NCBI GenBank assembly: GCA_964016885.1
Contig: OZ024742.1
Location: forward strand, 199,330,001-199,394,000
Length of the DNA stretch: 64,000 bases
Reading direction: 5' to 3'
DNA from: Eledone cirrhosa
Lineage: Eukaryota
Part shown: positions 35,469-64,000 of the stretch, piece by piece
Layout of the letters: every line of letters starts with the position of its first letter
Numbering within the stretch: position 1 is the stretch's first letter
Position numbers and translations under genes: made by a program
The notes under the pieces: generated by a model
Databases searched by the model: none
Told to the model about the DNA's origin: nothing
The model's input: only the letters and a program-made list of their open reading frames with translations

Positions 35469-35569
35469 ACTGAGAATTGAATTTTACCCCTGGCCTAATA
35501 TTTCAGCGGGAGTCACTGTTTTCTTTATAGTAGCAAAAAAAAAAAAAAAAGAAAATTATTATTTTCACA

Positions 35570-35689
35570 TAATTGTTTCTACTTTTTGGCACAAGGCCAG
35601 CAAGTACCCAGTGATTACTGGTACTTCATTTTATCGACTCCGCAAGTATGAAAAGAAAATTTAACCTCGGCGGGATTTGAACTCAGAAT
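35570..35689 (-). mobile_element. Truncated SINE (family 1) between the first tRNA-Met-like gene and its T-run
   Basis: aattgtttctacttt..ggcacaaggccagca...ttaacctcggcgggatttgaactcagaa. Confidence 0.8.
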
Positions 35690-35695
35690 GGTATG

Positions 35696-35789
35696 TGCTC
35701 TAGGTGAGGATTGAACTCACGACCTTCAGATTCCTCTGATTTCAAAACAGATTATGAGACTGACGTACTGCCTACTGCTATACCAATGC
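35696..35789 (-). pseudogene. tRNA-Met(CAT)-like gene with 21-nt intron, copy 1 (B box intact)
   Basis: GCATTGGTATAGCAGTAGGCAGTACGTCAGTCTCATA[21 nt]ATCTGAAGGTCGTGAGTTCAATCCTCACCTAGAGCA; elongator Met body with mismatched acceptor and D stems. Confidence 0.8.
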
Positions 35790-35812
35790 AACTGAAATAA
35801 AATAAAATAGAA

Positions 35813-35884
35813 AGGGGACACCCGGGATTGAACCAGGGACCTCTCGATCTGCAGTCAAATGCTCTACCACTGAGCTATATCCCC
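35813..35884 (-). tRNA. tRNA-Cys(GCA) copy 1
   Basis: GGGGATATAGCTCAGTGGTAGAGCATTTGACTGCAGATCGAGAGGTCCCTGGTTCAATCCCGGGTGTCCCCT; full cloverleaf, T4 runs downstream. Confidence 0.93.
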
Positions 35885-35970
35885 AGGTGAATAAAATATT
35901 GTGGAACTTTTCGCTATATCTCATTCAAACGCCAACTCTCTTAAACAGCTACTGACACACACACACACCA

Positions 35971-37063
35971 CACTGTCGTCCAGTCAGTCTTACTTGCTGC
36001 ATTGCCAAACTGACGGAATTCTGTGTTATAGAAACACACTGGAAATTCTGCAATTCTCACAGCCATATACGTCTCTTGCAATTTGGATTTAACTCCAGCT
36101 GCTGTGATCAACTCATCGAGTTTCTTGAAGGCATCACCCGGATCACTGATGGCGGCTCATGAGTGGATGGTGTTTTCCTTGAATTTGCTAAAGCTTTTAA
36201 TTCTGTTCCACACAAAACACTTATGGTAAAACTCTCTGCAAAGGGGGTGAAGAGATGATCTTTTTAACTGGTTGAAGTTCTTCATTCTCAGTTAAAAAGA
36301 GGTAGTCGCGTTGCTAGGACAGCATGCTTCGCCCTATGAGATGTCATCTGGTGTACAGCAGGGATTTGTTGTGGGTCGCATTTGGTTTGTTGTATATAAT
36401 AATGACATAGATGTCAACTTAAAGAATACTACAATGATGAAATACGCAAGTGACATCAAGCTGTATCTTGAGATAAAAAGGACAGATCCTGAACACTATA
36501 GCTCTTTCCTGGAATCAAATCTGGACACAAAGCAGAAATGGATCACGGACAGGCAACTCAAGCTGGCTGTGGACATGTATACAACCATACATCTCAAGAG
36601 AAAAACACCCAGCGTCCGCATACTCCCCCCACAACACTAATATCAAGAAATGTTCTTGTGAACGTGACCTGGGCATTACTATTAGCAGCAATTTGCGTTG
36701 GACAAAGCACACCTCTAAAATTGTCAAGAAGGCCGAGGGTGTCTTGGCTGGCGTCACTCAGTAAGACCTTTGTCAGTCGCTCTCCAGCTATTTATTTAAA
36801 GCTGTATATAGCTATGATGCGGCCACACTTAGAATTTGCAACTCCAGTCTGGAACCCCTATCCTGCTCAGAAAATTGACATCCTGGAAACTGTTCTAAGA
36901 CGTGCAATCAAGCGAATACCCTCCATCAGGCATCTACCATACTCTGAACGCTTGGTTCCCTGGGCATGTCAACTGACTTGATAAACACCCACAAAATTAT
37001 TAACCATCTTTCCAACATCAACCTGGAGCACCTTTTTGAATTCCATGTGTCTAACACACGTGG
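35971..37063 (+). pseudogene. CR1-clade LINE reverse transcriptase fragment (first of 20 complete repeats in the array)
   Basis: Array consensus RPVSLTCCIAKL, QFGF, VFLDFAKAFNSVPH, SGVQQ.SVVGP.WFVVYIND, KYADDIKL, ERDLG, RPHLEFATPVWNP, ...NTRG; with stops and frameshifts, truncated at both ends. Confidence 0.9.
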
Positions 37064-37121
37064 TAGCCAAAAAAAAAAAAAAAATTATTTTGGATTAATG
37101 AAAATTATTGTGTAAAGTACG

Positions 37122-37215
37122 TGCTCTAGGTGAGGATTGAAATCACGACCTTCAGATTTCTCTGATTTCAGATTGTATTATGAGACTGACGTACTGCCTA
37201 CTGCAATACCAATGC
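37122..37215 (-). pseudogene. tRNA-Met-like, intron, copy 2
   Basis: As copy 1 but B box GATTTCAATCC. Confidence 0.75.
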
Positions 37216-37238
37216 AACTGAAATAAAATAAAATAGAA

Positions 37239-37310
37239 AGGGGACACCCGGGATTGAACCAGGGACCTCTCGATCTGCAGTCGAATGCTCTACCACTGAG
37301 CTATATCCCC
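37239..37310 (-). tRNA. tRNA-Cys(GCA) copy 2
   Basis: Array consensus sequence. Confidence 0.95.
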
Positions 37311-38503
37311 AGGCGAATGAATTATTGTGGGAGTTTTCGCTATATCTCATTCAAACGCCAACTCTCTTAAACAGCTACTGACACACACACCACACTGTCG
37401 TCCAGTCAGTCTTACTTGCTGCATTGCCAAATGGCCGGAATCTCCTGTGTTATAGAAACACTCTGGAAATTCTGCAATTCTCACAGCCAAATACGTCTCT
37501 TGCAAATTGGATTTAACTCCAGCTGCCATGATCAACTCATCGAGTTTCTTGAAGGCATCACCCGGATCACTGATGGCGGCTCATGAGTGGATGGTGTTTT
37601 CCTTGAATTTGCTAAAGCTTTTAATACTGTTCCACACAAAACACTTATGGTAAAACTCTCTGCAAAGGGGGTGAAGTGATGATCTTTTGAACTGGTTGAA
37701 GTTCTTCATTCTCAGTTAAAAAGAGGTAGTCGCGGTGCTAGGACAGCATGCTTCGCCCTATGAAATGTCATCTGGTGTACAGCAGAGATCTGTTGTTGGT
37801 TCCCTTTGGTATGTTGTATATATTAATAACATGGATGTCAACTTCAAGAATTCTACGATGATGTAATACGCAGATGACATCAAGCTGTATCTTGAGATAT
37901 CAGACCTGGACACAATGCAGCAATGGATCACGGACAGGCAACTCAAGCTGGCTGTGGACAAGTGTACCACCATGCATTTTGGGAGGAAAACCCAACGTTC
38001 GCATACTCCCACCACAACACTAATATCAAGAAGTGTTCTTGTGAACGTGACCTGGGCATGACTGTCGGCAGCGGTTTGCGTTGGACAAAGCACACCTCTA
38101 AAATTGTCAAGAAGGCCGAGGGTGTCTTGGCTGGCGTCACTCAGTAAGACCTTTGTCAGTCTCTCTCCAGCTATTTATTTAAAGCTGTATATAGCTATGA
38201 TGCGGCCACACTTAGAATTTGCAACACCAGTCAGAAAGACCTATCCTGCTCAGAACATTGACCTCCTGGAAACTGTTCTAAGACGTGCAATGAAGCGAAT
38301 ACCCTCCATCAGGCATCTACCATACTCCGAACTCTTGGTTCCCTGGGCATGTCAACTGACTTGATAAACACCCACAAAATTATTAACCATCTTTCCAACA
38401 TCAACCTGGAGCACCTTTTTGAATTCCATGTGTCTAACACACGTGGTAGCCCCTCCCCACAAAAAATTATTTTGGACTAATGAAAATTATTGCGTAAAGT
38501 ATG

Positions 38504-38597
38504 TGCTCTGGGTGAGGATTGAAATCACGACCTTCAGATTTCTCTGATTTCAGATTGAATTATGAGACTGACGTACTGCCTACTGCAATACCAATGC
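38504..38597 (-). pseudogene. tRNA-Met-like, intron, copy 3
   Basis: Repeat copy. Confidence 0.75.
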
Positions 38598-38620
38598 AAC
38601 TGAAATAAAATAAGATAGAA

Positions 38621-38692
38621 AGGGGACACCCGGAATTGAACCAGGGACCTCTCGATCTGCAGTCGAATGCTCTACCACTGAGCTATAACCCC
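38621..38692 (-). tRNA. tRNA-Cys(GCA) copy 3 (2 substitutions)
   Basis: Acceptor-stem and T-loop changes. Confidence 0.8.
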
Positions 38693-39884
38693 TGGTGAAT
38701 GAACTATTGTGGAAGTTGTCGCTATATCTCATTCAAACGCCAACTCTCTTAAACAGCTACTGACACACACACACACCACACTGTGGTCCAGTCAGTCTGA
38801 CTTGCTGCATTGCCAAACTGACGGAATCCTGTGTTATAGAAACACTCTGCAACTTCTGCAATTCTCACGGCCATATCCGTCTCTTGCAATTTGGATTTAA
38901 CTCCAGCTGCTGTGATCAACTCATCGAGTTTCTTGAAGGCATCACCCGGATCACTGATGGCGGCTCATGAGTGGATGGTGTTTTCCTTGACTTTACTAAA
39001 GCTTTTAATTCTGTTCCACACAAAACACTTATGGTAAAACTCTCTGCAAAGGGGGTGAAGAGATGATCTTTTTAACTGGTTGAAGTTCTTCATTCTCAGT
39101 TAAAAAGAGGTAGTCGCGGTGCTAGGACAGCATGCTTCGCCCTATTAGATGTCATCTGGTGTACAGCAGAGATCTGTTGTTGGTCCCCTTTGGTTTGTTG
39201 TATATATTAATGACATAGATGTCAACTTCAAGAATGCTACAATGATGAAATACGCAGATGACATCAAGCTGTATCTTGAGATATCAGACCTGGACACAAT
39301 GCAGCAATGGATCACGGACTTGCAACTCAAGCTGGCTGTGGACAAGTGTACCACCATGCATTTTGGGAGGAAAACCCAACGTTCGCATACTCCCTCCACA
39401 ACACTAATATCAAGAAGTGTTCTTGTGAACGTGACCTGGGCATGACTGTCGGCAGCGGTTTGCGTTGGACAAAGCCCACCTCTAAAATTGTCAAGAAGGC
39501 CGAAAGTGTCTTAGCGTCACTCAGTAAGACCCTTGTCAGTCTCTCTCCAGCTATTTATTAAAAGCTGTATATAGCTATGATGCGGCCACACTTAGAATTT
39601 GCCGCACCAGTCTGGAACCCCTATCCTGCTCAGAACATTGACCTCCTGGAAACTGTTCTAAGACGTACAATCAAGCGAATACCCTCCATCAGGCATCTAC
39701 CATACTCTGAACGCTTTGTTCCCTGGGCATGTCAACTGACTTGATAAACACCCACAAAATTATTAACCATCTTTCCAACATCAACCTGGAGCACCTTTTT
39801 GAATTCCATGTGTCTAACACACGTGGTAGCCCCTCCCCCACAAAAAATTATTTTGGACTAATGAAAATTATTGCGTAAAGTATG

Positions 39885-39978
39885 TGCTCTGGGTGAGGAT
39901 TGAAATCACGACCTTCAGATTTCTCTGATTTCAGATTGCATTATGAGACTGACGTACTACCTACTGCAATACCAATGC
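39885..39978 (-). pseudogene. tRNA-Met-like, intron, copy 4
   Basis: Repeat copy. Confidence 0.75.
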
Positions 39979-40001
39979 AACTGAAATAAAATAAAATAGA
40001 A

Positions 40002-40073
40002 AGGGGACACCCGGGATTGAACCAGGGACCTCTCGATCTGCAGTCGAATGCTCTACCACTGAGCTATATCCCC
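40002..40073 (-). tRNA. tRNA-Cys(GCA) copy 4
   Basis: Consensus. Confidence 0.95.
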
Positions 40074-41301
40074 AGGTGAATGAAGTGTTGTGGGAGTTTT
40101 CGCTATATCTCATTCAAACGCCAACTCTCTTAAACAGCTACTGACACACACACACCACACTGTTGTCCAGTCAGTCTTACTTGCTGCATTGCCAATCTGA
40201 CGGAATCCTGTGTTATAGAAACACTCTGCAACTTCTGCAATTCTCACAGCCATATACGTCTCTTGCAATTTGGATTTAAGTCCAGCTGCTGTGATCAACT
40301 CATCGAGTTTCTTGAAGGCATCACCCGGATCACTGATGGCGGCTCATGAGTGGATGGTGTTTTCCTTGACTTTACTAAAGCTTTTAATTCTGTTCCACAC
40401 TAAACACTTATGGTAAAACTCTCTGCAAAGGGGGTGAAGAGATGATCTTTTTAACTGGTTGAAGTTCTTCATTCTCAGTTAAAAAGAGGTAGTCGCGCTG
40501 CTAGGACAGCATACTTCGCCCTATGAGATGTCATCTGGTGTACAGCAGAGATCTGTTGTTGGTCCCCTTTGGTTTGTTGTATATATTAATGACATAGATG
40601 TCAACTTCAAGAATGCTACAATGATGAAATACGCAGATGACATCAAGCTGTATCTTGAGATAAAAAGGGCAGATTCTGAACACTATAGATCTTTCCTGTA
40701 ACCAGACCTGGACACAATGCAGCAATGGATCACGGACTGGCAACTCAAGCTGGCTTTGGACACGTGTACCACCATGCATTTTGGGAGGAAAACCCAAAGT
40801 TCGCATACTCCCTCCACAACACTAATATCAAGAAATGTTCTTGTGAACGTGACCTGGGCATTATGTCGGCAGCGGTTTGCGTTGGACAAAGCACACCTTT
40901 AAAATTGTCAGGAAGGCCGAGAGCGTCTTGGCGTCACTCAGTAAGACCTTTGTCAGTCGCTCTCCAGCTATTTATTTAAAGCTGTATATAGCTATGATGC
41001 GGCCACACTTAGAATTTGCAACTCCAGTCTGGAACCCCTATCCTGCTCAGAACATTGACCTCCTGGAAACTGTTCTAAGACGTGCAATCAAGCGAATACC
41101 TTCCATCAGGCATCTACCATACTCTGAAGGCTTGGTTCCCTGGGCATGTCAACTGTCTTGATAAACACCCACAAAATTATTAACCATCTTTCCAACATCA
41201 ACCTGGAGCACCTTTTTGAATTCCATGTGTCTAACACACGTGGTAGCCAAAAAAAAAAAAAAAATTATTTTGGATTAATGAAAATTATTGTGTAAAGTAC
41301 G

Positions 41302-41395
41302 TGCTCTAGGTGAGGATTGAAATCACGACCTTCAGATTTCTCTGATTTCAGATTGTATTATGAGACTGACGTACTGCCTACTGCAATACCAATGC
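41302..41395 (-). pseudogene. tRNA-Met-like, intron, copy 5
   Basis: Repeat copy. Confidence 0.75.
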
Positions 41396-41418
41396 AACTG
41401 AAATAAAATAAGATAGAA

Positions 41419-41490
41419 AGGGGACACCCGGTATTGAACCAGGAACATCTCGATCTGCAGTCGAATGCTCTACCACTGAGCTATATCCCC
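41419..41490 (-). tRNA. tRNA-Cys(GCA) copy 5 (3 substitutions)
   Basis: ggtattgaaccaggaacatctc variant. Confidence 0.75.
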
Positions 41491-42678
41491 TGGTGAATGA
41501 ACTATTGTGGAAGTTGTCGCTATATCTCATTCAAACGCCAACTCTCTTAAACAGCTACTGACACACACACACCACACTGTGGTCCAGTCAGTCTTACTTG
41601 CTGCATTGCCAAACTGACGGAATTCTGTGTTATAGAAACACTCTGGAAATTCTGCAATTCTCACAGCCGTATCCGTCTCTTGCAATTTGGATTTAACTCC
41701 AGCTGCTGTGATCAACTCATCGAGTTTCTTGAAGGCATCACCCGGATCACTGATGGCGGCTCATGAGTGGATGGTGTTTTCCTTGAATTTGCTAAAGCTT
41801 TTAATTCTGTTCCACACAAAACACTTATGGTAAAACTCTCTGCAAAGGGGTGAAGAGATGATCTTTATAACTGGTTGAAGTTCTTCTTTCTCAGTTAAAA
41901 AGAGGTAGTCGCGGTGCTAGGACAGCATGCTTCGCCCTATGAGATGTCATCTGGTGTACAGCAGAGATATGTTGTTGGTCCCCTTTGGTTTGTTGTATAT
42001 ATTAATGACATCGATGTCAACTTCAAGAATGCTACAATGATGTAATACGCAGATGACATCAAGCTGTATCTTGAGATATCAGACCTGGACACAATGCAGC
42101 AATGGATCACGGACTTGCAACTCAAGCTGGCTGTGGACAAGTGTACCACCATGCATTTTGGGAGGAAAACCTAACGTTCGCATACTCCCTCCACAACACT
42201 AATATCAAGAAGTGTTCTTGTGAACGTGACCTGGGCATGACTGTCGGCAGCGGTTTGCGTTGGACAAAGCCCACCTCTAAAATTGTCAAGAAGGCCGAAA
42301 GTGTCTTAGCGTCACTCAGTAAGACCCTTGTCAGTCTCTCTCCAGCTATTTATTAAAAGCTGTATATAGCTATGATGCGGCCACACTTAGAATTTGCCGC
42401 ACCAGTCTGGAACCCCTATCCTGCTCAGAACATTGACCTCCTGGAAACTGTTCTAAGACGTACAATCAAGCGAATACCCTCCATCAGGCATCTACCATAC
42501 TCTGAACGCTTTGTTCCCTGGGCATGTCAACTGACTTGATAAACACCCACAAAATTATTAACCATCTTTCCAACATCAACCTGGAGCACCTTTTTGAATT
42601 CCATGTGTCTAACACACGTGGGAGCCAAAAAAAAAAGTAGATTATTTTGGACTAATGAAAATTATTGCGTAAAGTATG

Positions 42679-42772
42679 TGCTCTAGGTGAGGATTGAAAT
42701 CGCGACCTTCAGATTTCTCTGATTTCAGATTGAATTATGAGACTGACGTACTGCCTACTGCAATACCAATGC
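42679..42772 (-). pseudogene. tRNA-Met-like, intron, copy 6
   Basis: Repeat copy. Confidence 0.75.
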
Positions 42773-42795
42773 AACTGAAATAAAATAAAATAGAA

Positions 42796-42867
42796 AGGGG
42801 ACACCCGGGATTGAACCAGGGACCTCTCGATCTGCAGTCGAATGCTCTACCACTGAGCTATATCCCC
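42796..42867 (-). tRNA. tRNA-Cys(GCA) copy 6
   Basis: Consensus. Confidence 0.95.
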
Positions 42868-44075
42868 AGGCGAATGAATTATTGTGGAAGTTTTCACTAT
42901 ATCTCATTCAAACGCCAACTCTCTTAAACAGCTACTGACACACACACACCACACTGTGGTCTAGTCAGTCTTACTTGCTGCATTGCCAATCTGACGGAAT
43001 CCTGTGTTATAGAAACACTCTGCAACTTCTGCAATTCTCACAGCCATATACGTCTCTTGCAAATATGATTTAACTCCTGCTGCTGTGATCAACTCATCGA
43101 GTTTCTTGAAGGCATCACCCGGATCACTGATGGCGGCTCATGAGTGGATGTTTTTTTCCTTGACCTTGCCAAAGCTTTTAATTCTGTTCCACACAAAAAT
43201 AATTATGGTAAAACTCTCTGAAAAAATGGGTGAAGAGATGATCTTTTTAACTGGTTGAAGTTCTTCTTTCTCAGTTAAAAAGAGGCAGTCGCGGTGCTAG
43301 GACAGCATGCTTCACCCTATGAGATGTCATCTGGTGTACAGCAGAGATCTGTTGTTGGTCCACTTTGGTTTGTTGTATATATTAATGACATCGATGTCAA
43401 CTTCCTGAATGCTACAATGATGAAATACGCAGATGACATCAAGCTGTATCTTGAGATAAAAAGGGCAGAACCTGAACAGTATAGATGTTTCCTGTAATCA
43501 GACCTGGACACAATGCAGCAATGGATCACGGACTGACAACTCAAGCTGGCTGTGGACAAGTGTACCACCATGCATTTTGGGAGGAAAACCCAACGTTCGC
43601 ATACTCCCTCCACAACACTAATATCAAGAAGTGTTCTTGTGAATGTGACCTGGGCATTACTGTCGGCAGCGGTTGGCGTTAGACAAAGCACTCCTCTAAA
43701 ACTGTCAAGAAGGCCGAGAGTGTGTTGGCGTCACTCAGTAAGACCTTTGTCAGTCGCTCTCCAGCTATTTATTTAAAGCTGTATATAGCTATGATGCGGC
43801 CACACTTAGAATTTGCAACACCAGTCTGGAACCCCTTTCCTGCTCAGAACATTGACCTCCTGGAAACTGTTCTAAGACGTGCAATCAAGTGAATACCCTC
43901 CATCAGGCATCTACCATACTCTGAACGCTTGGTTCCCTGGGCATGTCAACTGACTTGATAAACACCCACAAAATTATTAACCATCTTTCCAACATCAACC
44001 TGGAGCACCTTTTTGAGGTAGCCAAAAAAAAAAAAAGATTATTTTGGACTAATGAAAATTATTGCGTAAAGTATG

Positions 44076-44169
44076 TGCTCTAGGTGAGGATTGAAATCAC
44101 GACCTTCAGATTTCTCTGATTTCAGATTGTATTATGAGACTGACGTACTGCCTACTGCAATACCAATGC
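44076..44169 (-). pseudogene. tRNA-Met-like, intron, copy 7
   Basis: Repeat copy. Confidence 0.75.
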
Positions 44170-44192
44170 AACTGAAATAAAATAAAATAGAA

Positions 44193-44264
44193 AGGGGACA
44201 CCCGGGATTGAACCAGGGACCTCTCGATCTGCAGTCGAATGCTCTACCACTGAGCTATATCCCC
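44193..44264 (-). tRNA. tRNA-Cys(GCA) copy 7
   Basis: Consensus. Confidence 0.95.
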
Positions 44265-45488
44265 AGGTGAATGAAGTGCTGTGGGAGTTTTCGCTATATC
44301 TCATTCAAACGCCAACTCTCTTAAACAGCTACTGACACACACACACCACACTGTCGTCCAGTCAGTCTGATTTGCTGCATTGCCAAACTGACGGAATCCT
44401 GTGTTATAGAAACACTCTGCAACTTCTGCAATTCTCACAGCCATATACGTCTCTTGCAATTTGGATTTAAGTCCAGCTGCTGTGATCAACTCATCGAGTT
44501 TCTTGAAGGCATCACCCGGATCACTGATGGCGGCTCATGAGTGGATGGTGTTTTCCTTGACTTTACTAAAGCTTTTAATTCTGTTCCACACAAAACACTT
44601 ATGGTAAAACTCTCTGCAAAGGGGTGAAGAGATGATCTTTTTAACTGGTTGAAGTTCTTCATTCTCAGTTAAAACAAGGTAGTCGCGGTGCTAGGACAGC
44701 ATGCTTCGCCCAATGAGATGTCATCTGGTGTACAGCAGAGATCTGTTGTTGGTTCCCTTTGGTTTGTTGTATATATTAATGACATCGATGTCAACTTCAA
44801 GAATGCTACAATGATGTAATACGCAGATGACATCAAGCTGTATCTTGAGATAAAAAGGGTAGAACCTGAACACAATAGATGTTTCCTGTAATCAGACCTG
44901 GACAGAATGCAGCAATGGATCTCGGACTGGCAACTCAAGCTGGCTGTGGACAAGTGTACCACCATGCATTTTGGGAGGAAAACCCAAAGTTCGCATACTC
45001 CCTCCACAACACTAATATCAAGAAATGTTCTTGTGAACGTGACCTGGGCATTATGTCGGCAGCGGTTTGCGTTGGACAAAGCACACCTTTAAAATTGTCA
45101 AGAAGGCCGAGAGCGTCTTGGCGTCACTCAGTAAGACCTTTGTCAGTCGCTCTCCAGCTATTTATTTAAAGCTGTATATAGCTATGATGCGGCCACACTT
45201 AGAATTTGCAACTCCAGTCTGGAACCCCTATCCTGCTCAGAACATTGAGCTCCTGGAAACTGTTCTAAGACGTGCAATCAAGCGAATACCTTTCACCAGG
45301 CATCTACCATACTCTGAACGCTTGGTTCCCTGGGCTTGTAAACTGTCTTGATAAACACCCACAAAATTATTAACCAACTTTCCAACATCAACCTGGAGCA
45401 CCTTTTTGAATTCCATGTGTCTAACACACGTGGTAGCCAAAAAGAAAAAAATTATTTTGGATTAATGAAAATTATTGCGTAAAGTATG

Positions 45489-45582
45489 TGCTCTAGGTGA
45501 GGATTGAAATCGCGACCTTCAGATTTCTCTGATTTCAGATTGTATTATGAGACTGACGTACTGCCTACTGCAATACCAATGC
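45489..45582 (-). pseudogene. tRNA-Met-like, intron, copy 8
   Basis: Repeat copy; spacer to Cys is 5 nt shorter. Confidence 0.75.
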
Positions 45583-45600
45583 AACTGAAATAAAATAGAA

Positions 45601-45672
45601 AGGGGACACCCGGGATTGAACCAGGGACCTTTCGATCTGCAGTCGAATGCTCTACCACTGAGCTATATCCCC
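45601..45672 (-). tRNA. tRNA-Cys(GCA) copy 8
   Basis: One stem-compatible substitution. Confidence 0.92.
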
Positions 45673-46901: not shown

Positions 46902-46995
46902 TGCTCTAGATGAGGATTGAAATCACGACCTTTAGATTTCTCTGATTTCAGATTGAATTATGAGACTGACGTACTGCCTACTGCAACACCAATGC
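46902..46995 (-). pseudogene. tRNA-Met-like, intron, copy 9 (more decayed)
   Basis: Additional substitutions. Confidence 0.7.
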
Positions 46996-47018
46996 AACTG
47001 AAATAAAATAAGATAGAA

Positions 47019-49667: not shown

Positions 49668-49761
49668 TGCTCTAGGTGAGGATTGAAATCACGACCTTCA
49701 GATTTCTCTGATTTCAGATTGTATTTTGAGACTGACGTACTGCCTACTGCAATACCAATGC
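49668..49761 (-). pseudogene. tRNA-Met-body copy 11 with anticodon CAA
   Basis: gtattttgagactgac = CT-CAA-A loop. Confidence 0.75.
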
Positions 49762-52478: not shown

Positions 52479-52572
52479 TGCTCTAGGTGAGGATTGAAAT
52501 CACGACCTTCAGATTTCTCTGATTTCAGATTGTATTTTGAGACTGACGTACTGCCTACTGCAATACCAATGC
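52479..52572 (-). pseudogene. tRNA-Met-body copy 13 with anticodon CAA
   Basis: As copy 11. Confidence 0.75.
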
Positions 52573-52595
52573 AACTGAAATAAAATAAAATAGAA

Positions 52596-52667
52596 AGGGG
52601 ACACCCGGGATTGAACCAGGGACCTCTCGATCTGCAGTCGAATGCTCTACCACTGAGCTATATCCCC
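52596..52667 (-). tRNA. tRNA-Cys(GCA) copy 13
   Basis: Consensus. Confidence 0.95.
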
Positions 52668-53855: not shown

Positions 53856-53949
53856 TGCTCTAGGTGAGGATTGAAATCGCGACCTTCAGATTTCTCTGAT
53901 TTCAGATTGCATTATGAGACTGACGTACTACCTACTGCAATACCAATGC
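53856..53949 (-). pseudogene. tRNA-Met-like, intron, copy 14
   Basis: As copy 10. Confidence 0.75.
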
Positions 53950-53972
53950 AACTGAAATAAAATAAAATAGAA

Positions 53973-54044
53973 AGGGGACACCCGGGATTGAACCAGGGAC
54001 TTCTCGATCTGCAGTCGAATGCTCTACCACTGAGCTATATCCCC
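53973..54044 (-). tRNA. tRNA-Cys(GCA) copy 14
   Basis: As copy 10. Confidence 0.9.
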
Positions 54045-55248
54045 AGGCGAATGAATTATTGTGGAAGTTTTCACTATATCTCATTCAAACGCCAATTCTC
54101 TTAAACAGCTAATGACACACACCACACTGTAGTCTAGTCAGTCTTACTTGCTGCATTGCCAATCTGACGAAATCCTGTGTTATAGAAACACTCTGCAACT
54201 TCTGCAATTCTCACAGCCATATACGTCTCTTGCAAATATGATTTAACTCCTGCTGCTGTGATCAACTCATCGAGTTTCTTGAAGGCATCACCCGGATCAC
54301 TGATGGCGGCTCATGAGTGGATGTTTTTTTCCTTGACCTTGCTAAAGCTTTTAATTCTGTTCCACACAAAAATAATTATGGTAAAACTCTCTGAAAAAAT
54401 GGGTGAAGAGATGATCTTTTTAACTGGTTGAAGTTCTTCTTTCTCAGTTAAAAAGAGGCAGTCGCGGTGCTAGGACAGCATGCTTCACCCTATGAGATGT
54501 CATCTGGTGTACAGCAGAGATCTGTTGTTGGTACACTTTGGTTTGTTGTATATATTAATGACATCGATGTCAACTTCCTGAATGCTACAATGATGAAATA
54601 CGCAGATGACATCAAGCTGTATCTTGAGATAAAAAGGGCAGAACCTGAACACTATAGATCTTTCCTGTAATCAGACCTGGACACAATGCAGCAATGGATC
54701 ACGGACTGACAACTCAAGCTGGCTGTGGACAAGTGTACCACCATGCATTTTGGGAGGAAAACCCAACGTTCGCATACTCCCTTCACAACACTAATATCGA
54801 GAAGTGTTCTTGTGAACGTGACCTGGGCATTACTGTCGGCAGCGGTTGGCGTTAGACAAAGCACTCCTCTAAAACTGTCAAGAAGGCCGAGAGTGTGTTG
54901 GCGTCACTCAGTAAGACCTTTGTCAGTCTCTCTCCAGCTATTTATTTAAAGCTGTATATAGCTATGATGCGGCCGCACTTAGAATTTGCAACACCAGTCT
55001 GGAACCCCTATCCTGCTCAGTACATTGACCTCCTGGAAACTGTTCTAAGACGTGCAATCAAGCGAATACCTTTCACCAGGCATCTACCATACTCTGAACG
55101 CTTGGTTCCCTGGGCATATCAACTGACTTGAAAAACACCCACAAATTTATTAACCATCTTTCCAACATCAACCTGGAGCACCTTTTTGAGGTAGCCAAAA
55201 AAAAAAAAAGATTATTTTGGACTAATGAAAATTATTGCGTAAAGTATG

Positions 55249-55342
55249 TGCTCTAGGTGAGGATTGAAATCACGACCTTCAGATTTCTCTGATTTCAGAT
55301 TGTATTTTGAGACTGACGTACTGCCTACTGCAATACCAATGC
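55249..55342 (-). pseudogene. tRNA-Met-body copy 15 with anticodon CAA
   Basis: As copy 11. Confidence 0.75.
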
Positions 55343-55365
55343 AACTGAAATAAAATAAAATAGAA

Positions 55366-55437
55366 AGGGGACACCCGGGATTGAACCAGGGACCTCTCGA
55401 TCTGCAGTCGAATGCTCTACCACTGAGCTATATCCCC
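55366..55437 (-). tRNA. tRNA-Cys(GCA) copy 15
   Basis: Consensus. Confidence 0.95.
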
Positions 55438-56664
55438 AGGTGAATGAAGTGTTGTGGGAGTTTTCGCTATATCTCATTCAAACGCCAACTCTCTTAAACA
55501 GCTACTGACAAGCACACACCACACTGTCGTCCAGTCAGTCTTACTTGCTGCATTGCCAAACTGACGGAATCCTGTGTTGTAGAAACACTCTGCAACTTCT
55601 GCAATTCTCACGGTCATATCCGTCTCTTGCAATTTGGATTTAGCTCCAGCTGCCGTGATCAACTCATCGAGTTTCTTGAAGGCATCACCCGGATCACTGA
55701 TGGCGGCTCATGAGTGGATGGTGTTTTCCTTGACTTTGCTAAAGCTTTTAGTCTGTTCCACACAAAACACTTATGGTAAAACTCTCTGCAAAGGGGTGAA
55801 AAGATTATCTTTTTAACTGGTTGAAGTTCTTCATTCTCAGTTAAAAAGAGGTAGTCGCGGTGCTCGGACAGCATGCTTCGCCCTTTGAGATGTCATCTGA
55901 TGTACAGCAGAGATCTGTTGTTGGTCCCCTTTGGTTTGTTGTATATATTAATGTCATAGATGTCAACTTAAGAATGCTACAATGATGAAATACGCAGATG
56001 ACATCAAGCTGTATCTCGAGATAAAAAGGGCAGATTCTGAACACTATAGATCTTTCTTGTAACCAGACCTGGACACAATGCAGCAATGGATCACGGACTG
56101 GCAACTCAAGCTGGCTTTGGACACGTGTACCACCATGCATTTTGGGAGGAAAACCCAAAGTTCGCATACTCCCTCCACAACACTAATATCAAGAAATGTT
56201 CTTGTGAACGTGACCTGGGCATTATGTCGGCAGCGGTTTGCGTTGGACAAAGCACACCTTTAAAATTGTCAAGAAGGCCGAGAGCGTCTTGGCGTCACTC
56301 AGTAAGACCTTTGTCAGTCGCTCTCCAGCTATTTATTTAAAGCTGTATATAGCTATGATGCGGCCACATTTAGAATTTGAAACTCCAGTCTGGAACCCCT
56401 ATCCTGCTCAGAACATTGAGCTCCTGGAAACTGTTCTAAGACGTGCAATCAAGCGAATACCTTTCACCAGGCATCTACCATACTCTGAACGCTTGGTTCC
56501 CTGGGCATGTAAACTCTTTTGATAAACACCCACAAAATTATTAACCATCTTTCCAACATCAACCTGGAGCACCTTTTTGAATTCCATGTGTCTAACACAC
56601 GTGGTAGCCAAAAAAAAAAAAAAAAAATTATTTTGGATTAATGAAAATTATTGCGTAAAGTATG

Positions 56665-56758
56665 TGCTCTAGGTGAGGATTGAAATCGCGACCTTCAGAT
56701 TTCTCTGATTTCAGATTGCATTATGAGACTGACGTACTACCTACTGCAATACCAATGC
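56665..56758 (-). pseudogene. tRNA-Met-like, intron, copy 16
   Basis: As copy 12. Confidence 0.75.
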
Positions 56759-56781
56759 AACTGAAATAAAATAAAATAGAA

Positions 56782-56853
56782 AGGGGACACCCGGGATTGA
56801 ACCAGGGACCTCTCGATCTGCAGTCGAATGCTCTACCACTGAGCTATATCCCC
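56782..56853 (-). tRNA. tRNA-Cys(GCA) copy 16
   Basis: Consensus. Confidence 0.95.
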
Positions 56854-58059
56854 AGGCGAATGAATTATTGTGGAAGTTTGCACTATATCTCATTCAAACG
56901 CCAACTCTCTTAAACAGCTACTGACACACACACACCACACTGTGGTCTAGTCAGTCTTACTTGCTGCATTGCCAATCTGACGGAATCCTATGTTATAGAA
57001 ACACTCTGCAACTTCTGCAATTCTCACAGCCATATACGTCTCTTGCAATTATGATTTAACTCCTGCTGTTGTGATCAACTCATCGAGTTTCTTGAAGGCA
57101 TCACCCGGATCACTGATGGCGGCTCATGAGTGGATGTTTTTTTCCTTGACCTTGCCAAAGCTTTTAATTCTGTTCCACACAAAAATAATTATGGTAATAC
57201 TCTCTGCAAAGGGGTGAAGAGATGATCTTTTTAACTGGTTGAAGTTCTTCTTTCTCAGTTAAAAAGAGGCAGTCGCGGTGCTAGGACAGCATGCTTCACC
57301 CTATGAGATGTCATCTGGTGTACAGCAGAGATCTGTTGTTGGTCCACTTTGGTTTGTTGTATATATTAATGACATCGATGTCAACTTCCTGAATGCTACA
57401 ATGATGAAATACGCAAATGACATCAAGCTGTATCTTGAGATAAAAAGGGCAGAACCTGAACACTATAGATCTTTCCTGTAATCAGACCTGGACACAATGC
57501 AGCAATGGATCACGGACTGACAACTCAAGCTGGCTGTGGACAAGTGTACCACCATGCATTTTGGGAGGAAAACCCAACGTTCGCATACTCCCTTCACAAC
57601 ACTAATATCGAGAAGTGTTCTTGTGAACGTGACCTGGGCATTACTGTCGGCAGCGGTTGGCGTTAGACAAAGCACTCCTCTAAAACTGTCAAGAAGGCCG
57701 AGAGTGTGTTGGCGTCACTCAGTAAGACCTTTGTCAGTCTCTCTCCAGCTATTTATTTAAAGCTGTATATAGCTATGATGCGGCCGCACTTAGAATTTGC
57801 AACACCAGTCTGGAACCCCTATCCTGCTCAGTACATTGACCTCCTGGAAACTGTTCTAAGACGTGCAATCAAGCGAATACCTTTCACCAGGCATCTACCA
57901 TACTCTGAACGCTTGGTTCCCTGGGCATATCAACTGACTTGAAAAACACCCACAAATTTATTAACCATCTTTCCAACATCAACCTGGAGCACCTTTTTGA
58001 GGTAGCCAAAAAAAAAAAAAGATTATTTTGGACTAATGAAAATTATTGCGTAAAGTATG

Positions 58060-58153
58060 TGCTCTAGGTGAGGATTGAAATCACGACCTTCAGATTTCTC
58101 TGATTTCAGATTGTATTTTGAGACTGACGTACTGCCTACTGCAATACCAATGC
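58060..58153 (-). pseudogene. tRNA-Met-body copy 17 with anticodon CAA
   Basis: As copy 11. Confidence 0.75.
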
Positions 58154-58176
58154 AACTGAAATAAAATAAAATAGAA

Positions 58177-58248
58177 AGGGGACACCCGGGATTGAACCAG
58201 GGACCTCTCGATCTGCAGTCGAATGCTCTACCACTGAGCTATATCCCC
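58177..58248 (-). tRNA. tRNA-Cys(GCA) copy 17
   Basis: Consensus. Confidence 0.95.
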
Positions 58249-59475
58249 AGGTGAATGAAGTGTTGTGGGAGTTTTCGCTATATCTCATTCAAACGCCAAC
58301 TCTCTTAAACAGCTACTGACACACACACACCACACTGTCGTCCAGTCAGTCTTACTTGCTGCATTGCCAAACTGACGGAATCCTGTGTTGTAGAAACACT
58401 CTGCAACTTCTGCAATTCTCACGGTCATATCCGTCTCTTGCAATTTGGATTTAGCTCCAGCTGCCGTGATCAACTCATCGAGTTTCTTGAAGGCATCACC
58501 CGGATCACTGATGGCGGCTCATGAGTGGATGGTGTTTTCCTTGACTTTGCTAAAGCTTTTAGTCTGTTCCACACAAAACACTTATGGTAAAACTCTCTGC
58601 AAAGGGGTGAAAAGATTATCTTTTTAACTGGTTGAAGTTCTTCATTCTCAGTTAAAAAGAGGTAGTCGCGGTGCTCGGACAGCATGCTTCGCCCTTTGAG
58701 ATGTCATCTGATGTACAGCAGAGATCTGTTGTTGGTCCCCTTTGGTTTGTTGTATATATTAATGTCATAGATGTCAACTTAAGAATGCTACAATGATGAA
58801 ATACGCAGATGACATCAAGCTGTATCTCGAGATAAAAAGGGCAGATTCTGAACACTATAGATCTTTCTTGTAACCAGACCTGGACACAATGCAGCAATGG
58901 ATCACGGACTGGCAACTCAAGCTGGCTTTGGACAGGTGTACCACCATGCATTTTGGGAGGAAAACCCAAAGTTCGCATACTCCCTCCACAACACTAATAT
59001 CAAGAAATGTTCTTGTGAACGTGACCTGGGCATTATGTCGGCAGCGGTTTGCGTTGGACAAAGCACACCTTTAAAATTGTCAAGAAGGCCGAGAGCGTCT
59101 TGGCGTCACTCAGTAAGACCTTTGTCAGTCGCTCTCCAGCTATTTATTTAAAGCTGTATATAGCTATGATGCGGCCACATTTAGAATTTGAAACTCCAGT
59201 CTGGAACCCCTATCCTGCTCAGAACATTGAGCTCCTGGAAACTGTTCTAAGACGTGCAATCAAGCGAATACCTTTCACCAGGCATCTACCATACTCTGAA
59301 CGCTTGGTTCCCTGGGCATGTAAACTCTTTTGATAAACACCCACAAAATTATTAACCATCTTTCCAACATCAACCTGGAGCACCTTTTTGAATTCCATGT
59401 GTCTAACACACGTGGTAGCCAAAAAAAAAAAAAAAAAATTATTTTGGATTAATGAAAATTATTGCGTAAAGTATG

Positions 59476-59569
59476 TGCTCTAGGTGAGGATTGAAATCGC
59501 GACCTTCAGATTTCTCTGATTTCAGATTGCATTATGAGACTGACGTACTACCTACTGCAATACCAATGC
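59476..59569 (-). pseudogene. tRNA-Met-like, intron, copy 18
   Basis: As copy 12. Confidence 0.75.
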
Positions 59570-59592
59570 AACTGAAATAAAATAAAATAGAA

Positions 59593-59664
59593 AGGGGACA
59601 CCCGGGATTGAACCAGGGACCTCTCGATCTGCAGTCGAATGCTCTACCACTGAGCTATATCCCC
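59593..59664 (-). tRNA. tRNA-Cys(GCA) copy 18
   Basis: Consensus. Confidence 0.95.
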
Positions 59665-60870
59665 AGGCGAATGAATTATTGTGGAAGTTTGCACTATATC
59701 TCATTCAAACGCCAACTCTCTTAAACAGCTACTGACACACACACACCACACTGTGGTCTAGTCAGTCTTACTTGCTGCATTGCCAATCTGACGGAATCCT
59801 GTGTTATAGAAACACTCTGCAACTTCTGCAATTCTCACAGCCATATACGTCTCTTGCAATTATGATTTAACTCCTGCTGTTGTGATCAACTCATCGAGTT
59901 TCTTGAAGGCATCACCCGGATCACTGATGGCGGCTCATGAGTGGATGTTTTTTTCCTTGACCTTGCCAAAGCTTTTAATTCTGTTCCACACAAAAATAAT
60001 TATGGTAATACTCTCTGCAAAGGGGTGAAGAGATGATCTTTTTAACTGGTTGAAGTTCTTCTTTCTCAGTTAAAAAGAGGCAGTCGCGGTGCTAGGACAG
60101 CATGCTTCACCCTATGAGATGTCATCTGGTGTACAGCAGAGATCTGTTGTTGGTCCACTTTGGTTTGTTGTATATATTAATGACATCGATGTCAACTTCC
60201 TGAATGCTACAATGATGAAATACGCAAATGACATCAAGCTGTATCTTGAGATAAAAAGGGCAGAACCTGAACACTATAGATCTTTCCTGTAATCAGACCT
60301 GGACACAATGCAGCAATGGATCACGGACTGACAACTCAAGCTGGCTGTGGACAAGTGTACCACCATGCATTTTGGGAGGAAAACCCAACGTTCGCATACT
60401 CCCTTCACAACACTAATATCGAGAAGTGTTCTTGTGAACGTGACCTGGGCATTACTGTCGGCAGCGGTTGGCGTTAGACAAAGCACTCCTCTAAAACTGT
60501 CAACAAGGCCGAGAGTGTGTTGGCGTCACTCAGTAAGACCTTTGTCAGTCTCTCTCCAGCTATTTATTTAAAGCTGTATATAGCTATGATGCGGCCGCAC
60601 TTAGAATTTGCAACACCAGTCAGGAACCCCTATCCTGCTCAGTACATTGACCTCCTGGAAACTGTTCTAAGACGTGCAATCAAGCGAACACCCTCCATCA
60701 GGCATCTACCATACTCTGAACGCTTGGTTCCCTGGGCATATCAACTGACTTGATAAACACCCACAAATTTATTAACCATCTTTCCAACATCAACCTGGAG
60801 CACCTTTTTGAGGTAGCCAAAAAAAAAAAAAGATTATTTTGGACTAATGAAAATTATTGCGTAAAGTATG

Positions 60871-60964
60871 TGCTCTAGGTGAGGATTGAAATCACGACCT
60901 TCAGATTTCTCTGATTTCAGATTGTATTATGAGACTGACGTACTGCCTACTGCAATACCAATGC
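60871..60964 (-). pseudogene. tRNA-Met-like, intron, copy 19 (CAT)
   Basis: Copy-11-type flanks but CAT anticodon. Confidence 0.75.
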
Positions 60965-60987
60965 AACTGAAATAAAATAAAATAGAA

Positions 60988-61059
60988 AGGGGACACCCGG
61001 GATTGAACCAGGGACCTCTCGATCTGCAGTCGAATGCTCTACCACTGAGCTATATCCCC
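60988..61059 (-). tRNA. tRNA-Cys(GCA) copy 19
   Basis: Consensus. Confidence 0.95.
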
Positions 61060-62286
61060 AGGTGAATGAAGTGTTGTGGGAGTTTTCGCTATATCTCATT
61101 CAAACGCCAACTCTCTTAAACAGCTACTGACACACACACACCACACTGTCGTCCAGTCAGTCTTACTTGTTGCATTGCCAAACTGACGGAATCCTGTGTT
61201 GTAGAAACACTCTGCAACTTCTGCAATTCTCACGGTCATATCCGTCTCTTGCAATTTGGATTTAGCTCCAGCTGCCGTGATCAACTCATCGAGTTTCTTG
61301 AAGGCATCACCCGGATCACTGATGGCGGCTCATGAGTGGATGGTGTTTTCCTTGACTTTGCTAAAGCTTTTAGTCTGTTCCACACAAAACACTTATGGTA
61401 AAACTCTCTGCAAAGGGGTGAAAAGATTATCTTTTTAACTGGTTGAAGTTCTTCATTCTCAGTTAAAAAGAGGTAGTCGCGGTGCTCGGACAGCATGCTT
61501 CGCCCTTTGAGATGTCATCTGATGTACAGCAGAGATCTGTTGTTGGTCCCCTTTGGTTTGTTGTATATATTAATGTCATAGATGTCAACTTAAGAATGCT
61601 ACAATGATGAAATACGCAGATGACATCAAGCTGTATCTCGAGATAAAAAGGGCAGATTCTGAACACTATAGATCTTTCTTGTAACCAGACCTGGACACAA
61701 TGCAGCAATGGATCACGGACTGGCAACTCAAGCTGGCTTTGGACACGTGTACCACCATGCATTTTGGGAGGAAAACCCAAAGTTCGCATACTCCCTCCAC
61801 AACACTAATATCAAGAAATGTTCTTGTGAACGTGACCTGGGCATTATGTCGGCAGCGGTTTGCGTTGGACAAAGCACACCTTTAAAATTGTCAAGAAGGC
61901 CGAGAGCGTCTTGGCGTCACTCAGTAAGACCTTTGTCAGTCGCTCTCCAGCTATTTATTTAAAGCTGTATATAGCTATGATGCGGCCACATTTAGAATTT
62001 GAAACTCCAGTCTGGAACCCCTATCCTGCTCAGAACATTGAGCTCCTGGAAACTGTTCTAAGACGTGCAATCAAGCGAATACCTTTCACCAGGCATCTAC
62101 CATACTCTGAACGCTTGGTTCCCTGGGCATGTAAACTGTTTTGATAAACACCCACAAAATTATTAACCATCTTTCCAACATCAACCTGGAGCACCTTTTT
62201 GAATTCCATGTGTCTAACACACGTGGTAGCCAAAAAAAAAAAAAAAAAATTATTTTGGATTAATGAAAATTATTGCGTAAAGTATG

Positions 62287-62380
62287 TGCTCTAGGTGAGG
62301 ATTGAAATCGCGACCTTCAGATTTCTCTGATTTCAGATTGCATTATGAGACTGACGTACTACCTACTGCAATACCAATGC
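62287..62380 (-). pseudogene. tRNA-Met-like, intron, copy 20
   Basis: Repeat copy. Confidence 0.75.
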
Positions 62381-62403
62381 AACTGAAATAAAATAAAATA
62401 GAA

Positions 62404-62475
62404 AGGGGACACCCGGGATTGAACCAGGGACCTCTCGATCTGCAGTCGAATGCTCTACCACTGAGCTATATCCCC
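62404..62475 (-). tRNA. tRNA-Cys(GCA) copy 20
   Basis: Consensus. Confidence 0.95.
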
Positions 62476-63702
62476 AGGTGAATGAAGTGTTGTGGGAGTT
62501 TTCGCTATATCTCATTCAAACGCCAACTCTCTTAAACAGCTACTGACACACACACACCACACTGTCGTCCAGTCAGTCTTACTTGTTGCATTGCCAAACT
62601 GACGGAATCCTGTGTTGTAGAAACACTCTGCAACTTCTGCAATTCTCACGGTCATATCCGTCTCTTGCAATTTGGATTTAGCTCCAGCTGCCGTGATCAA
62701 CTCATCGAGTTTCTTGAAGGCATCACCCGGATCACTGATGGCGGCTCATGAGTGGATGGTGTTTTCCTTGACTTTGCTAAAGCTTTTAGTCTGTTCCACA
62801 CAAAACACTTATGGTAAAACTCTCTGCAAAGGGGTGAAAAGATTATCTTTTTAACTGGTTGAAGTTCTTCATTCTCAGTTAAAAAGAGGTAGTCGCGGTG
62901 CTCGGACAGCATGCTTCGCCCTTTGAGATGTCATCTGATGTACAGCAGAGATCTGTTGTTGGTCCCCTTTGGTTTGTTGTATATATTAATGTCATAGATG
63001 TCAACTTAAGAATGCTACAATGATGAAATACGCAGATGACATCAAGCTGTATCTCGAGATAAAAAGGGCAGATTCTGAACACTATAGATCTTTCTTGTAA
63101 CCAGACCTGGACACAATGCAGCAATGGATCACGGACTGGCAACTCAAGCTGGCTTTGGACACGTGTACCACCATGCATTTTGGGAGGAAAACCCAAAGTT
63201 CGCATACTCCCTCCACAACACTAATATCAAGAAATGTTCTTGTGAACGTGACCTGGGCATTATGTCGGCAGCGGTTTGCGTTGGACAAAGCACACCTTTA
63301 AAATTGTCAAGAAGGCCGAGAGCGTCTTGGCGTCACTCAGTAAGACCTTTGTCAGTCGCTCTCCAGCTATTTATTTAAAGCTGTATATAGCTATGATGCG
63401 GCCACATTTAGAATTTGAAACTCCAGTCTGGAACCCCTATCCTGCTCAGAACATTGAGCTCCTGGAAACTGTTCTAAGACGTGCAATCAAGCGAATACCT
63501 TTCACCAGGCATCTACCATACTCTGAACGCTTGGTTCCCTGGGCATGTAAACTGTTTTGATAAACACCCACAAAATTATTAACCATCTTTCCAACATCAA
63601 CCTGGAGCACCTTTTTGAATTCCATGTGTCTAACACACGTGGTAGCCAAAAAAAAAAAAAAAAAATTATTTTGGATTAATGAAAATTATTGCGTAAAGTA
63701 TG

Positions 63703-63796
63703 TGCTCTAGGTGAGGATTGAAATCGCGACCTTCAGATTTCTCTGATTTCAGATTGCATTATGAGACTGACGTACTACCTACTGCAATACCAATGC
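63703..63796 (-). pseudogene. tRNA-Met-like, intron, copy 21
   Basis: Repeat copy. Confidence 0.75.
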
Positions 63797-63819
63797 AACT
63801 GAAATAAAATAAAATAGAA

Positions 63820-63891
63820 AGGGGACACCCGGGATTGAACCAGGGACCTCTCGATCTGCAGTCGAATGCTCTACCACTGAGCTATATCCCC
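63820..63891 (-). tRNA. tRNA-Cys(GCA) copy 21
   Basis: Consensus. Confidence 0.95.
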
Positions 63892-64000
63892 AGGTGAATG
63901 AAGTGTTGTGGGAGTTTTCGCTATATCTCATTCAAACGCCAACTCTCTTAAACAGCTACTGACACACACACACCACACTGTCGTCCAGTCAGTCTTACTT

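Follow-up and report, generated by a model that had tools for sequence, protein, structure and literature searches.

A tRNA-Cys Macrosatellite in Eledone cirrhosa, Probably Derived from One Duplicated Locus and Spaced by a Dead LINE Fragment

Structure and Extent of the Array

The right-hand part of a 64,000-nucleotide stretch of the Eledone cirrhosa genome (GenBank assembly GCA_964016885.1, contig OZ024742.1, G000:C3:199,330,001-199,394,000, hereafter the window) is occupied by a tandem array, in which each unit of about 1.4 kb combines a tRNA-Cys(GCA) gene, a decayed tRNA-Met-like gene and a broken piece of a long interspersed nuclear element (LINE) that covers its reverse transcriptase (RT) domain. 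The results altogether indicate that this array probably arose by tandem duplication of one locus followed by unequal crossing-over, with tRNA-Cys genes that are likely transcribed and a LINE piece that likely serves as a passive spacer. The anatomy of the unit, a single 5′ truncation of the LINE shared by the units, shared breaks in its reading frame, the remainder of the same LINE at the right edge of the array, the division of the units into subfamilies, and the share of the tRNA-Cys genes held by the array were all seen directly. Positions are counted from the first nucleotide of the window, and extended coordinates continue the same count rightward past its end, into 200 kb of neighbouring assembly without any N that was added to the window.

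Twenty-one minus-strand tRNA-Cys(GCA) genes, spaced by ~1.4 kb, were called by ARAGORN in the window between 35,813 and 63,891, calls with very long introns being disregarded as artefacts. A preliminary description of this DNA, made from the letters alone, had reported at least 28 kb of such units. This was borne out and extended, since the window part of the array (35530..64000, made up of 20 full units and the edges) runs on to extended 96,308 (G000:C3:199,426,308), 32 kb past the window, and the whole array comprises 44 tRNA-Cys genes and 43 full head-to-tail units of 1,373-1,426 bp each in ~61 kb of gap-free sequence. With head-to-tail units longer than 1 kb, each carrying a tRNA gene, the array is a tRNA-gene macrosatellite of the kind also known as a variable number tandem repeat (VNTR). 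The arrangement within the unit was also as first described, namely a minus-strand tRNA-Cys gene (37239..37310 in its commonest form), a 23-nt spacer (37216..37238, minus strand), an intron-bearing Met-like gene (37122..37215, minus strand), and LINE homology that begins 86-87 bp upstream of tRNA-Cys on the opposite strand. The junction between units, with its T-run (37064..37096, minus strand; an A-run on the plus strand), is common to the left flank and is likely the duplication breakpoint. In Dictyostelium, the 5′ end of the TRE5 element faces the tRNA gene's 5′ end, which is the same arrangement as found here.

A single unit could be aligned end to end with the remaining ones. Pairwise identity among units averaged 95.8% (range 92.4-100%), and 36 of the 43 units were distinct. 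The most divergent units were placed at the edges of the array, and the central units formed two alternating subfamilies. Subfamily B, which accounts for 16 of the 43 units and includes five identical ones (two of them at 61060..63891), has spread recently. This combination of high identity, subfamilies, and divergent edges is the pattern of concerted evolution. In one sequencing run, which may come from the assembly's own sample, a contig spanned the trailer, Met-like gene, spacer, and tRNA-Cys without a difference, at a word depth of 205 vs. 5-11 for contigs of the dispersed LINE.

The array was also detected in three reduced-representation DNA runs carrying the same species label, in which 2,078, 995, and 2,113 reads, respectively, were at least 99% identical to one unit, while the background of the dispersed LINE was even across the runs (1,783, 1,881, and 1,623). 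A restriction fragment deeply read in these three other DNA samples (61253..61497) carries a marker of subfamily B, and the ratios of marker reads to reads of the other class were 947:260, 260:278, and 962:331. This suggests that subfamily B varies about 3.6-fold among the samples, although the loss of a cut site could mimic such a difference.

The LINE Piece and the Origin of the Array

The LINE piece, located in unit 1 at 35972..37063 (plus strand), is a 5′-truncated and 3′-cut fragment of 1,092 bp and makes up ~77% of a unit's length. It is part of a dispersed family of elements encoding an apurinic/apyrimidinic endonuclease (APE) and an RT, for which first-look searches returned 4,823 and 6,079 candidates, and it is ~85% identical to the best copies found outside the array. 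The preliminary description had taken the spacer for essentially the RT domain. The presence of this domain was confirmed, but it does not stand alone: compared with a natural copy used as reference, whose open frame of 464 codons includes RVT_1 at residues 46-271, the array piece covers codons 48-53 to 416-432, which correspond to the RT domain and about 145-160 further C-terminal codons. This is about 40% of open reading frame 2 (ORF2) and corresponds approximately to residues 545-930 in P0001, the closest full protein, which has 979 aa, is 62% identical, and contains only the Exo_endo_phos and RVT_1 domains. Through P0001 and RVT_1, the family was thus found to combine an APE endonuclease and an RT in a protein of about 1,000 aa with no RNase H, as in the CR1 group. 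A short 3′ microsatellite instead of poly(A) and frequent 5′ truncation are marks of CR1 elements; here, ATT repeats followed the LINE terminus in many of 24 termini, and most of the 29 dispersed copies fetched were 5′-truncated. These traits fit the CR1 group, the clade name being putative. A 1,180-aa open frame considered as an intact ORF2 turned out to be low-complexity sequence with read-through.

The LINE piece of every unit contains 7-13 frameshifts and stops, which rules out an intact RT in any of them. Several of these breaks are common to 39-43 of the 43 units, including one stop and one 6-bp deletion found in all of them, a frameshift found in 42, and a second stop found in 41. Since the breaks are common to the units, the element was dead before the amplification, and since the units share one LINE 5′ end, they go back to one insertion. 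Moreover, the right flank of the array (extended 96,316-97,333) repeats the 5′ flank of tRNA-Cys and contains the rest of the same LINE insertion up to and including its 3′ end, so that the units are cut-outs of one locus; the left flank, in turn, shares the T-run junction with the units. The proposal that the LINE was a hitch-hiker is therefore upheld, because the element had been broken before the amplification and the remainder of the same insertion is found at the right edge. An RT-sized spacer needs no function, because a truncation and a breakpoint are enough to yield it, and most dispersed copies are 5′-truncated as well; for the same reason, a spacer consisting mostly of RT is no real distinction of this array. 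The units differ by 9-11% from the commonest letters of the LINE family, vs. a median of 4.4% for 21 dispersed copies, which were picked as best hits, and no date is claimed from this comparison. In other places of the genome (G000:C24:19,944,890-19,945,823 and C3:31,578,279-31,578,578), a piece of ~61 bp from the 3′ region of the LINE was found in small tandem arrays.

The array would have started as a single ordinary locus with a tRNA-Cys gene, a decayed tRNA-Met gene, and an already broken, 5′-truncated LINE. A tandem head-to-tail duplication, broken in the LINE at one end and at the T-run at the other, would have produced the first units, and later expansion would have proceeded through unequal crossing-over. 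The tRNA-Cys genes would be transcribed, with the LINE piece as a passive spacer, and weak selection at the level of the array would stop damaged tRNA-Cys variants from spreading, while the copy number would drift among individuals. The order of these events, the activity of RNA polymerase III (Pol III), the weak array-level selection, and the drift of the copy number are what we infer from the observations above. This LINE is absent from other tRNA arrays of the genome, namely the Met dimers of C2 and the short repeats of Cys genes on C13.

The tRNA-Cys Genes and Their Conservation

The tRNA-Cys genes are 72 nt long, and 31 of the 44 copies are identical (14 of the 21 in the window). The first one (35813..35884, minus strand, called by ARAGORN) scored 62.5 bits against the Rfam tRNA model and the commonest form scored 66.7 bits, these being the lowest and highest values among five genes scanned. 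Variants were found in 13 of the 44 copies, and 4 were broken; in the other 40, a stem-and-box test found that all stems, the GCA anticodon, and the A and B boxes had been kept. A T4 run was observed no more than 11 nt behind all 44 genes, with the first T4 at +6 in 41 of them and at +11 in 3. Judged by the cloverleaf, anticodon, boxes, and T4 run, 40 of the 44 copies are thus predicted to have the structure of a functional tRNA-Cys gene. The initial impression that most tRNA-Cys copies were canonical and that the Met-like gene and the RT were broken in shared ways across units was correct. The 23-nt spacer contains the T4 terminator runs of tRNA-Cys, together with a 5-nt leader typical of the Met genes of this genome, and these runs disfavour the co-transcription of the two genes as a dimer.

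It had also been proposed to determine the share of all tRNA-Cys genes located here, and the array was found to hold most of them. An exact 39-nt tRNA-Cys core matched 48 places in the genome, 34 of them in the array, and a looser pattern gave 39 of 56. Outside the array, 13 of 30 Cys-like matches passed the stem-and-box test, which means that the array contributes 40 of 53 intact tRNA-Cys genes (75%), a share that leaves out isodecoders missed by both patterns.

Several comparisons set tRNA-Cys apart from the rest of the unit. Every letter of its commonest form is present in intact tRNA-Cys genes elsewhere, whereas departures from outside copies were counted at 10 of the 73 exon sites of the Met-like gene (P=0.0014) and at 87 of the 1,061 sites of the LINE (P=0.005). 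Variants reaching 5 copies were found at none of the 72 tRNA-Cys sites vs. 91 of 1,085 LINE sites (P=0.002), and no overlapping 72-bp window of the LINE was free of such sites. Diversity was 0.014 in tRNA-Cys vs. 0.045 in the LINE. Between subfamilies B and C, all 72 tRNA-Cys sites agree, whereas 73 of 1,060 sites in the LINE, 6 of 85 in the flank, and 2 of 73 in the Met exons are different (P=0.012, tRNA-Cys vs. the LINE). Furthermore, within the tRNA-Cys 5′ flank (35885..35971 in unit 1), the 20 bp nearest to the gene are hypervariable among units, with 10 of 20 variable sites vs. 22.7% in the LINE (P=0.012), and the variation peaks at -14 (three alleles) and -12 (four alleles). According to PMC6130373, the upstream variation peak of transcribed tRNA genes lies at these positions, and such hypervariability is linked to transcription. 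A comparison of CpG decay (0 of 6 tRNA-Cys sites vs. 7 of 52 LINE sites) involved too few sites. Contigs from a second species left the tRNA-Cys 5′ flank uncovered.

However, other results weigh against a special conservation of tRNA-Cys. The total number of segregating sites is alike in tRNA-Cys and the LINE (14/72 vs. 246/1,085, P=0.66), and the frequency test depends on the threshold, giving P=0.32, 0.051, and 0.073 at 1, 2, and 3 copies and P=0.002, 0.008, and 0.012 at 5, 8, and 10 copies, in site tests where the units are related and not independent. The zone of low diversity, with 7 of 246 common sites, takes in all of the tRNA block as well as the final 72 bp of the LINE; tRNA-Cys is not significantly below the adjacent Met/trailer zone (P=0.12-0.16), and, since the low-diversity zone is wider than tRNA-Cys, local gene conversion could explain part of the effect. 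When tRNA-Cys is compared with the nearest single outside gene, 2 of 72 sites differ, and tRNA-Cys no longer stands apart from the LINE (P=0.11). In addition, the 3′ flank of tRNA-Cys is not hypervariable (1 of 10 sites), unlike the pattern in PMC6130373. The view that tRNA-Cys would be more conserved than its spacer was thus sustained for common variants, and it failed both for total segregating sites and for the immediate neighbours. On balance, the sequence comparisons suggest that the tRNA-Cys genes are likely active and under weak array-level selection.

Alternative Explanations

The similarity of the tRNA-Cys copies could also be explained by a silent, neutral macrosatellite, whose tRNA-Cys genes were functional before the amplification and are now alike only through recent homogenisation and local gene conversion. 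Such a satellite would accommodate the appearance of tRNA-Cys singletons at the LINE rate, the variant and broken copies, the extension of the low-diversity zone beyond tRNA-Cys, the variation of subfamily B among samples, and the existence of 13 intact tRNA-Cys genes elsewhere, and drift was concluded for a tRNA array of Arabidopsis (PMC2886086). Against it stand the complete agreement of subfamilies B and C in tRNA-Cys, when they differ in the LINE, the flank, and the Met-like gene, and the hypervariability of the inner 5′ flank, and we consider this explanation rather unlikely. A selected amplification, by contrast, would have favoured either a larger supply of tRNA-Cys or a periodic TFIIIC landmark acting as a chromatin boundary. 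The concentration of intact tRNA-Cys genes in the array would agree with the former, and a dosage effect is plausible; a boundary role has been proposed for the human 1q23.3 tRNA repeat (PMC4041453), and exon-like pieces of a class C G protein-coupled receptor (GPCR) are found about 78 kb to the right of the array. However, tRNA copy numbers of this size are usual in this genome, where patterns for Met and Arg-TCT matched 65 and 28 times, respectively, and samples so far apart in their subfamily-B reads speak against a tightly kept dosage. Selection for the amplification itself is considered very unlikely.

A further explanation would be that small RNAs antisense to the LINE family arise from the array, as the preliminary description had suggested, or that the array was produced by a tRNA-targeting LINE. 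The 43 copies of a 1.1-kb piece with about 85% identity to dispersed copies would suit the former, and retroelements specific to tRNA spacers, such as Dewa, do exist (PMC3706591). The production of small RNAs is disfavoured by the layout: Pol III would transcribe in the direction that leads off from the LINE, and an antisense transcript would have to pass 3-5 T4+ runs between tRNA-Cys and the next LINE piece. As for targeting, no tRNA gene was found in the 3.5-3.7-kb loci of the 29 dispersed LINE copies, some of which run past the locus edge and leave their 5′ ends out of view, and BLAST of the LINE piece against the Cys, Met, and Arg clusters retrieved from C13, C8, C27, C2, C5, C7, and C20 gave no match. 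These two results make a LINE that targets tRNA genes improbable, and the one shared LINE 5′ end corresponds to one insertion. Overall, an origin or a function of the array in either of these terms appears extremely unlikely, and the derivation from one duplicated locus with a passive LINE spacer is preferred.

The Met-Like Gene and Its LINE Tail

The second gene of the unit (37122..37215) resembles an elongator tRNA-Met(CAT) and measures 94 nt, including a 21-nt intron (37,158-37,178). An insert of 21-22 nt after position 37 was found in all 65 elongator-Met pattern matches genome-wide, which identifies it as a genuine intron and rules out a local duplication. The gene is decayed throughout the array: 44 of 44 copies have an A.A mismatch in the acceptor stem, the D stem is mismatched in 43, and 42 have lost G53 of the B box, a base retained in the first copy at the edge (35696..35789, minus strand). 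It differs from canonical Met genes at 10 of 73 exon sites in its modal form and at 7 by a strict count, and the two copies reported among five scanned reached 26.5-28.9 bits in Rfam vs. 52 for an intact intron-bearing Met gene. The paired stems and the B box of a functional elongator tRNA-Met therefore appear to be lost. In five broken copies (11, 13, 15, 17, and 31; e.g., window 49,668-49,761), the anticodon CAT has been changed to CAA. Some changes in the Met-like gene restore pairing at 5-68 and 11-24, and also at 12-23 in two copies, and in the last copy (extended ~96,120-96,213), the acceptor mismatch is the sole defect. These features hint at a functional, divergent Met ancestor. For two of the 3′ changes, the LINE tail described below is a possible alternative source.

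A stretch of ~24 nt matching the 3′ terminus of the LINE family was observed directly behind the Met-like gene (37097..37118, minus strand), starting 3-4 bases after its end and running in the orientation of the tRNA, in 43 of 44 copies. Its alignment score of 36 was reached by none of 5,000 shuffles and by none of 500 shuffles against the whole LINE, and the trailers of 36 canonical Met genes gave a best score of 20. On the other side, the Met-like gene keeps only ~5 nt of the usual leader, and tRNA-Cys occupies the place where a TATA-like element is found in 45 of 51 intact Met genes, the flank also ending in AGTT in 45 of 51. All 44 genome matches to the array-type Met motif lie inside the array, indicating that this form has not dispersed, and no target-site duplication was seen by eye. 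The layout is that of a tRNA/LINE chimera or of a short interspersed nuclear element (SINE) at birth; the tail may also have been an independent tiny insertion. Of the marks of a tRNA-derived SINE, the tRNA-like head and the LINE 3′ end were found, and dispersed copies were not.

In its most extended form, this idea would imply that an unspliced pre-tRNA-Met was fused by the LINE RT to the element's own 3′ tail and put into the tRNA-Cys terminator as a SINE at birth, and that the product was later caught in a copy-number-variable array supplying most tRNA-Cys, with individuals severalfold different in their Cys decoding capacity. Such a chain of events is unlikely. A second candidate chimera was found on C4 (L103:1490-1600; G000:C4:86,075,800, minus strand) as one of two matches to a genome-wide pattern, in which the same LINE 3′ tail directly follows a decayed tRNA-like sequence with the anticodon TGT; the Rfam score of the tRNA-like sequence, 25.1 bits, is below the gathering score. 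In addition, ~13 of 24 LINE termini (L063-L092) showed the tail followed immediately by the head of one SINE-like repeat, a count biased by a query that held both. This joint may reflect a preferred one.

Relation to Known Arrays and Significance

A literature search, largely of open-access main texts, found no tRNA array spaced mostly by an RT piece and no tRNA arrays of cephalopods. Even so, the novelty claimed in the preliminary description, which knew of no array with an RT domain as its spacer, was overstated, since a partial LINE and a piece of a long terminal repeat (LTR) are likewise found in the unit of the human 1q23.3 tRNA repeat. This VNTR has 9-43 head-to-tail units per allele, in which the partial LINE represents 7.37% and the LTR fragment 5.7% of the unit (PMC4041453). 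Both arrays thus consist of head-to-tail tRNA units carrying retroelement pieces. The human unit, however, is a GC-rich 7.3-kb sequence with five tRNA genes and a CTCF site and is conserved in mouse (PMC4041453), whereas the 1.4-kb unit described here has one intact and one decayed tRNA gene, and the LINE makes up most of its length. The array of 27 triplet tRNA units on Arabidopsis chromosome 1, for which drift was concluded, is similar in its unequal crossing-over, concerted evolution, non-functional genes toward the ends, and drifting copy number; it differs in that the consulted parts of that report mention no retroelement spacer and in that a pseudogene is present here in every unit (PMC2886086).

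Passive multiplication of one old insertion by tandem amplification has likewise been described for megasatellites of amplified transposable element (TE) fragments and for single TE insertions homogenised through rDNA arrays (PMC2588610, PMC10946416). In the array studied here, the host gene is a tRNA gene, unlike in those cases, and the RT domain happens to fall within the fragment. The Dewa retroelement, which sits in tRNA-Leu spacers, is comparable as a non-LTR element beside tRNA genes in an array (PMC3706591), but no repeated targeting was seen here and all copies come from one insertion. As regards the Met-like gene, chimeras of tRNA and LINE-1 are reported in mammals, the tRNA parts being mostly halves in antisense (bioRxiv 10.1101/2025.02.02.635956). 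The fusion of tRNA sequence to a LINE is shared with these chimeric retrocopies and with tRNA-headed SINEs; in contrast to the mammalian chimeras, the tRNA part here is a full intron-bearing Met in sense orientation, the LINE part is only a tail of ~24 nt, and the product is undispersed.

Since passengers of this kind are already known from other tRNA arrays, the array is an ordinary if new example, and it reveals no new role for RT sequence. Its value lies in being a well-resolved case of the birth of a tRNA array from one locus with dead neighbours carried along, in which the breakpoints and the parent insertion are still readable. Since one locus holds about three quarters of a tRNA family, with a distinguishable isodecoder and apparent variation among individuals, selection on dosage can be tested here against drift. 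The junction between a tRNA head and a LINE tail offers a small lead on the beginnings of SINEs.

Other tRNA Clusters and Neighbouring Sequences

Two further tRNA clusters were characterized. On C2, a Met macrosatellite (G000:C2:102,059,900-102,118,900, L046-L052) lies inside a cluster of >55 Met genes and consists of ~19 dimers of 2.4 kb that are nearly identical and each contain two intact, intron-containing Met genes; its spacer gave no match when compared with repeats in 409 kb of other loci. On C13 (G000:C13:5,535,700-5,586,700, L021-L026), about 28 Cys-like genes are arranged in short tandem runs with a spacing of 150-190 bp, 12 of them being intact and many decayed, including two with a GCT anticodon.

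At the left edge of the array, a fragment absent from the internal units lies between the first Met-like gene and the T-run (35569..35691, minus strand). It is abundant, with 85 BLAST hits in 409 kb of other loci, and in our own reading it appears to be SINE-like. The class C GPCR exon-like pieces are located 78-115 kb to the right of the array, at L012:2-1123 (minus strand), which contains an NCD3G domain (E=2e-11), and at L015:6317-7051 (minus strand), which has no Pfam match. In the left part of the window, a 1,257-codon open frame at 1,720-5,490 (minus strand), without a Pfam match, shows an RT-like motif and a C-terminal GIY-YIG-like motif, and presumably belongs to a Penelope-type element. 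Between this frame and the array, a remnant of a hAT transposase was identified at 19,644-20,546 (minus strand; Dimer_Tnp_hAT, E=8.8e-07).

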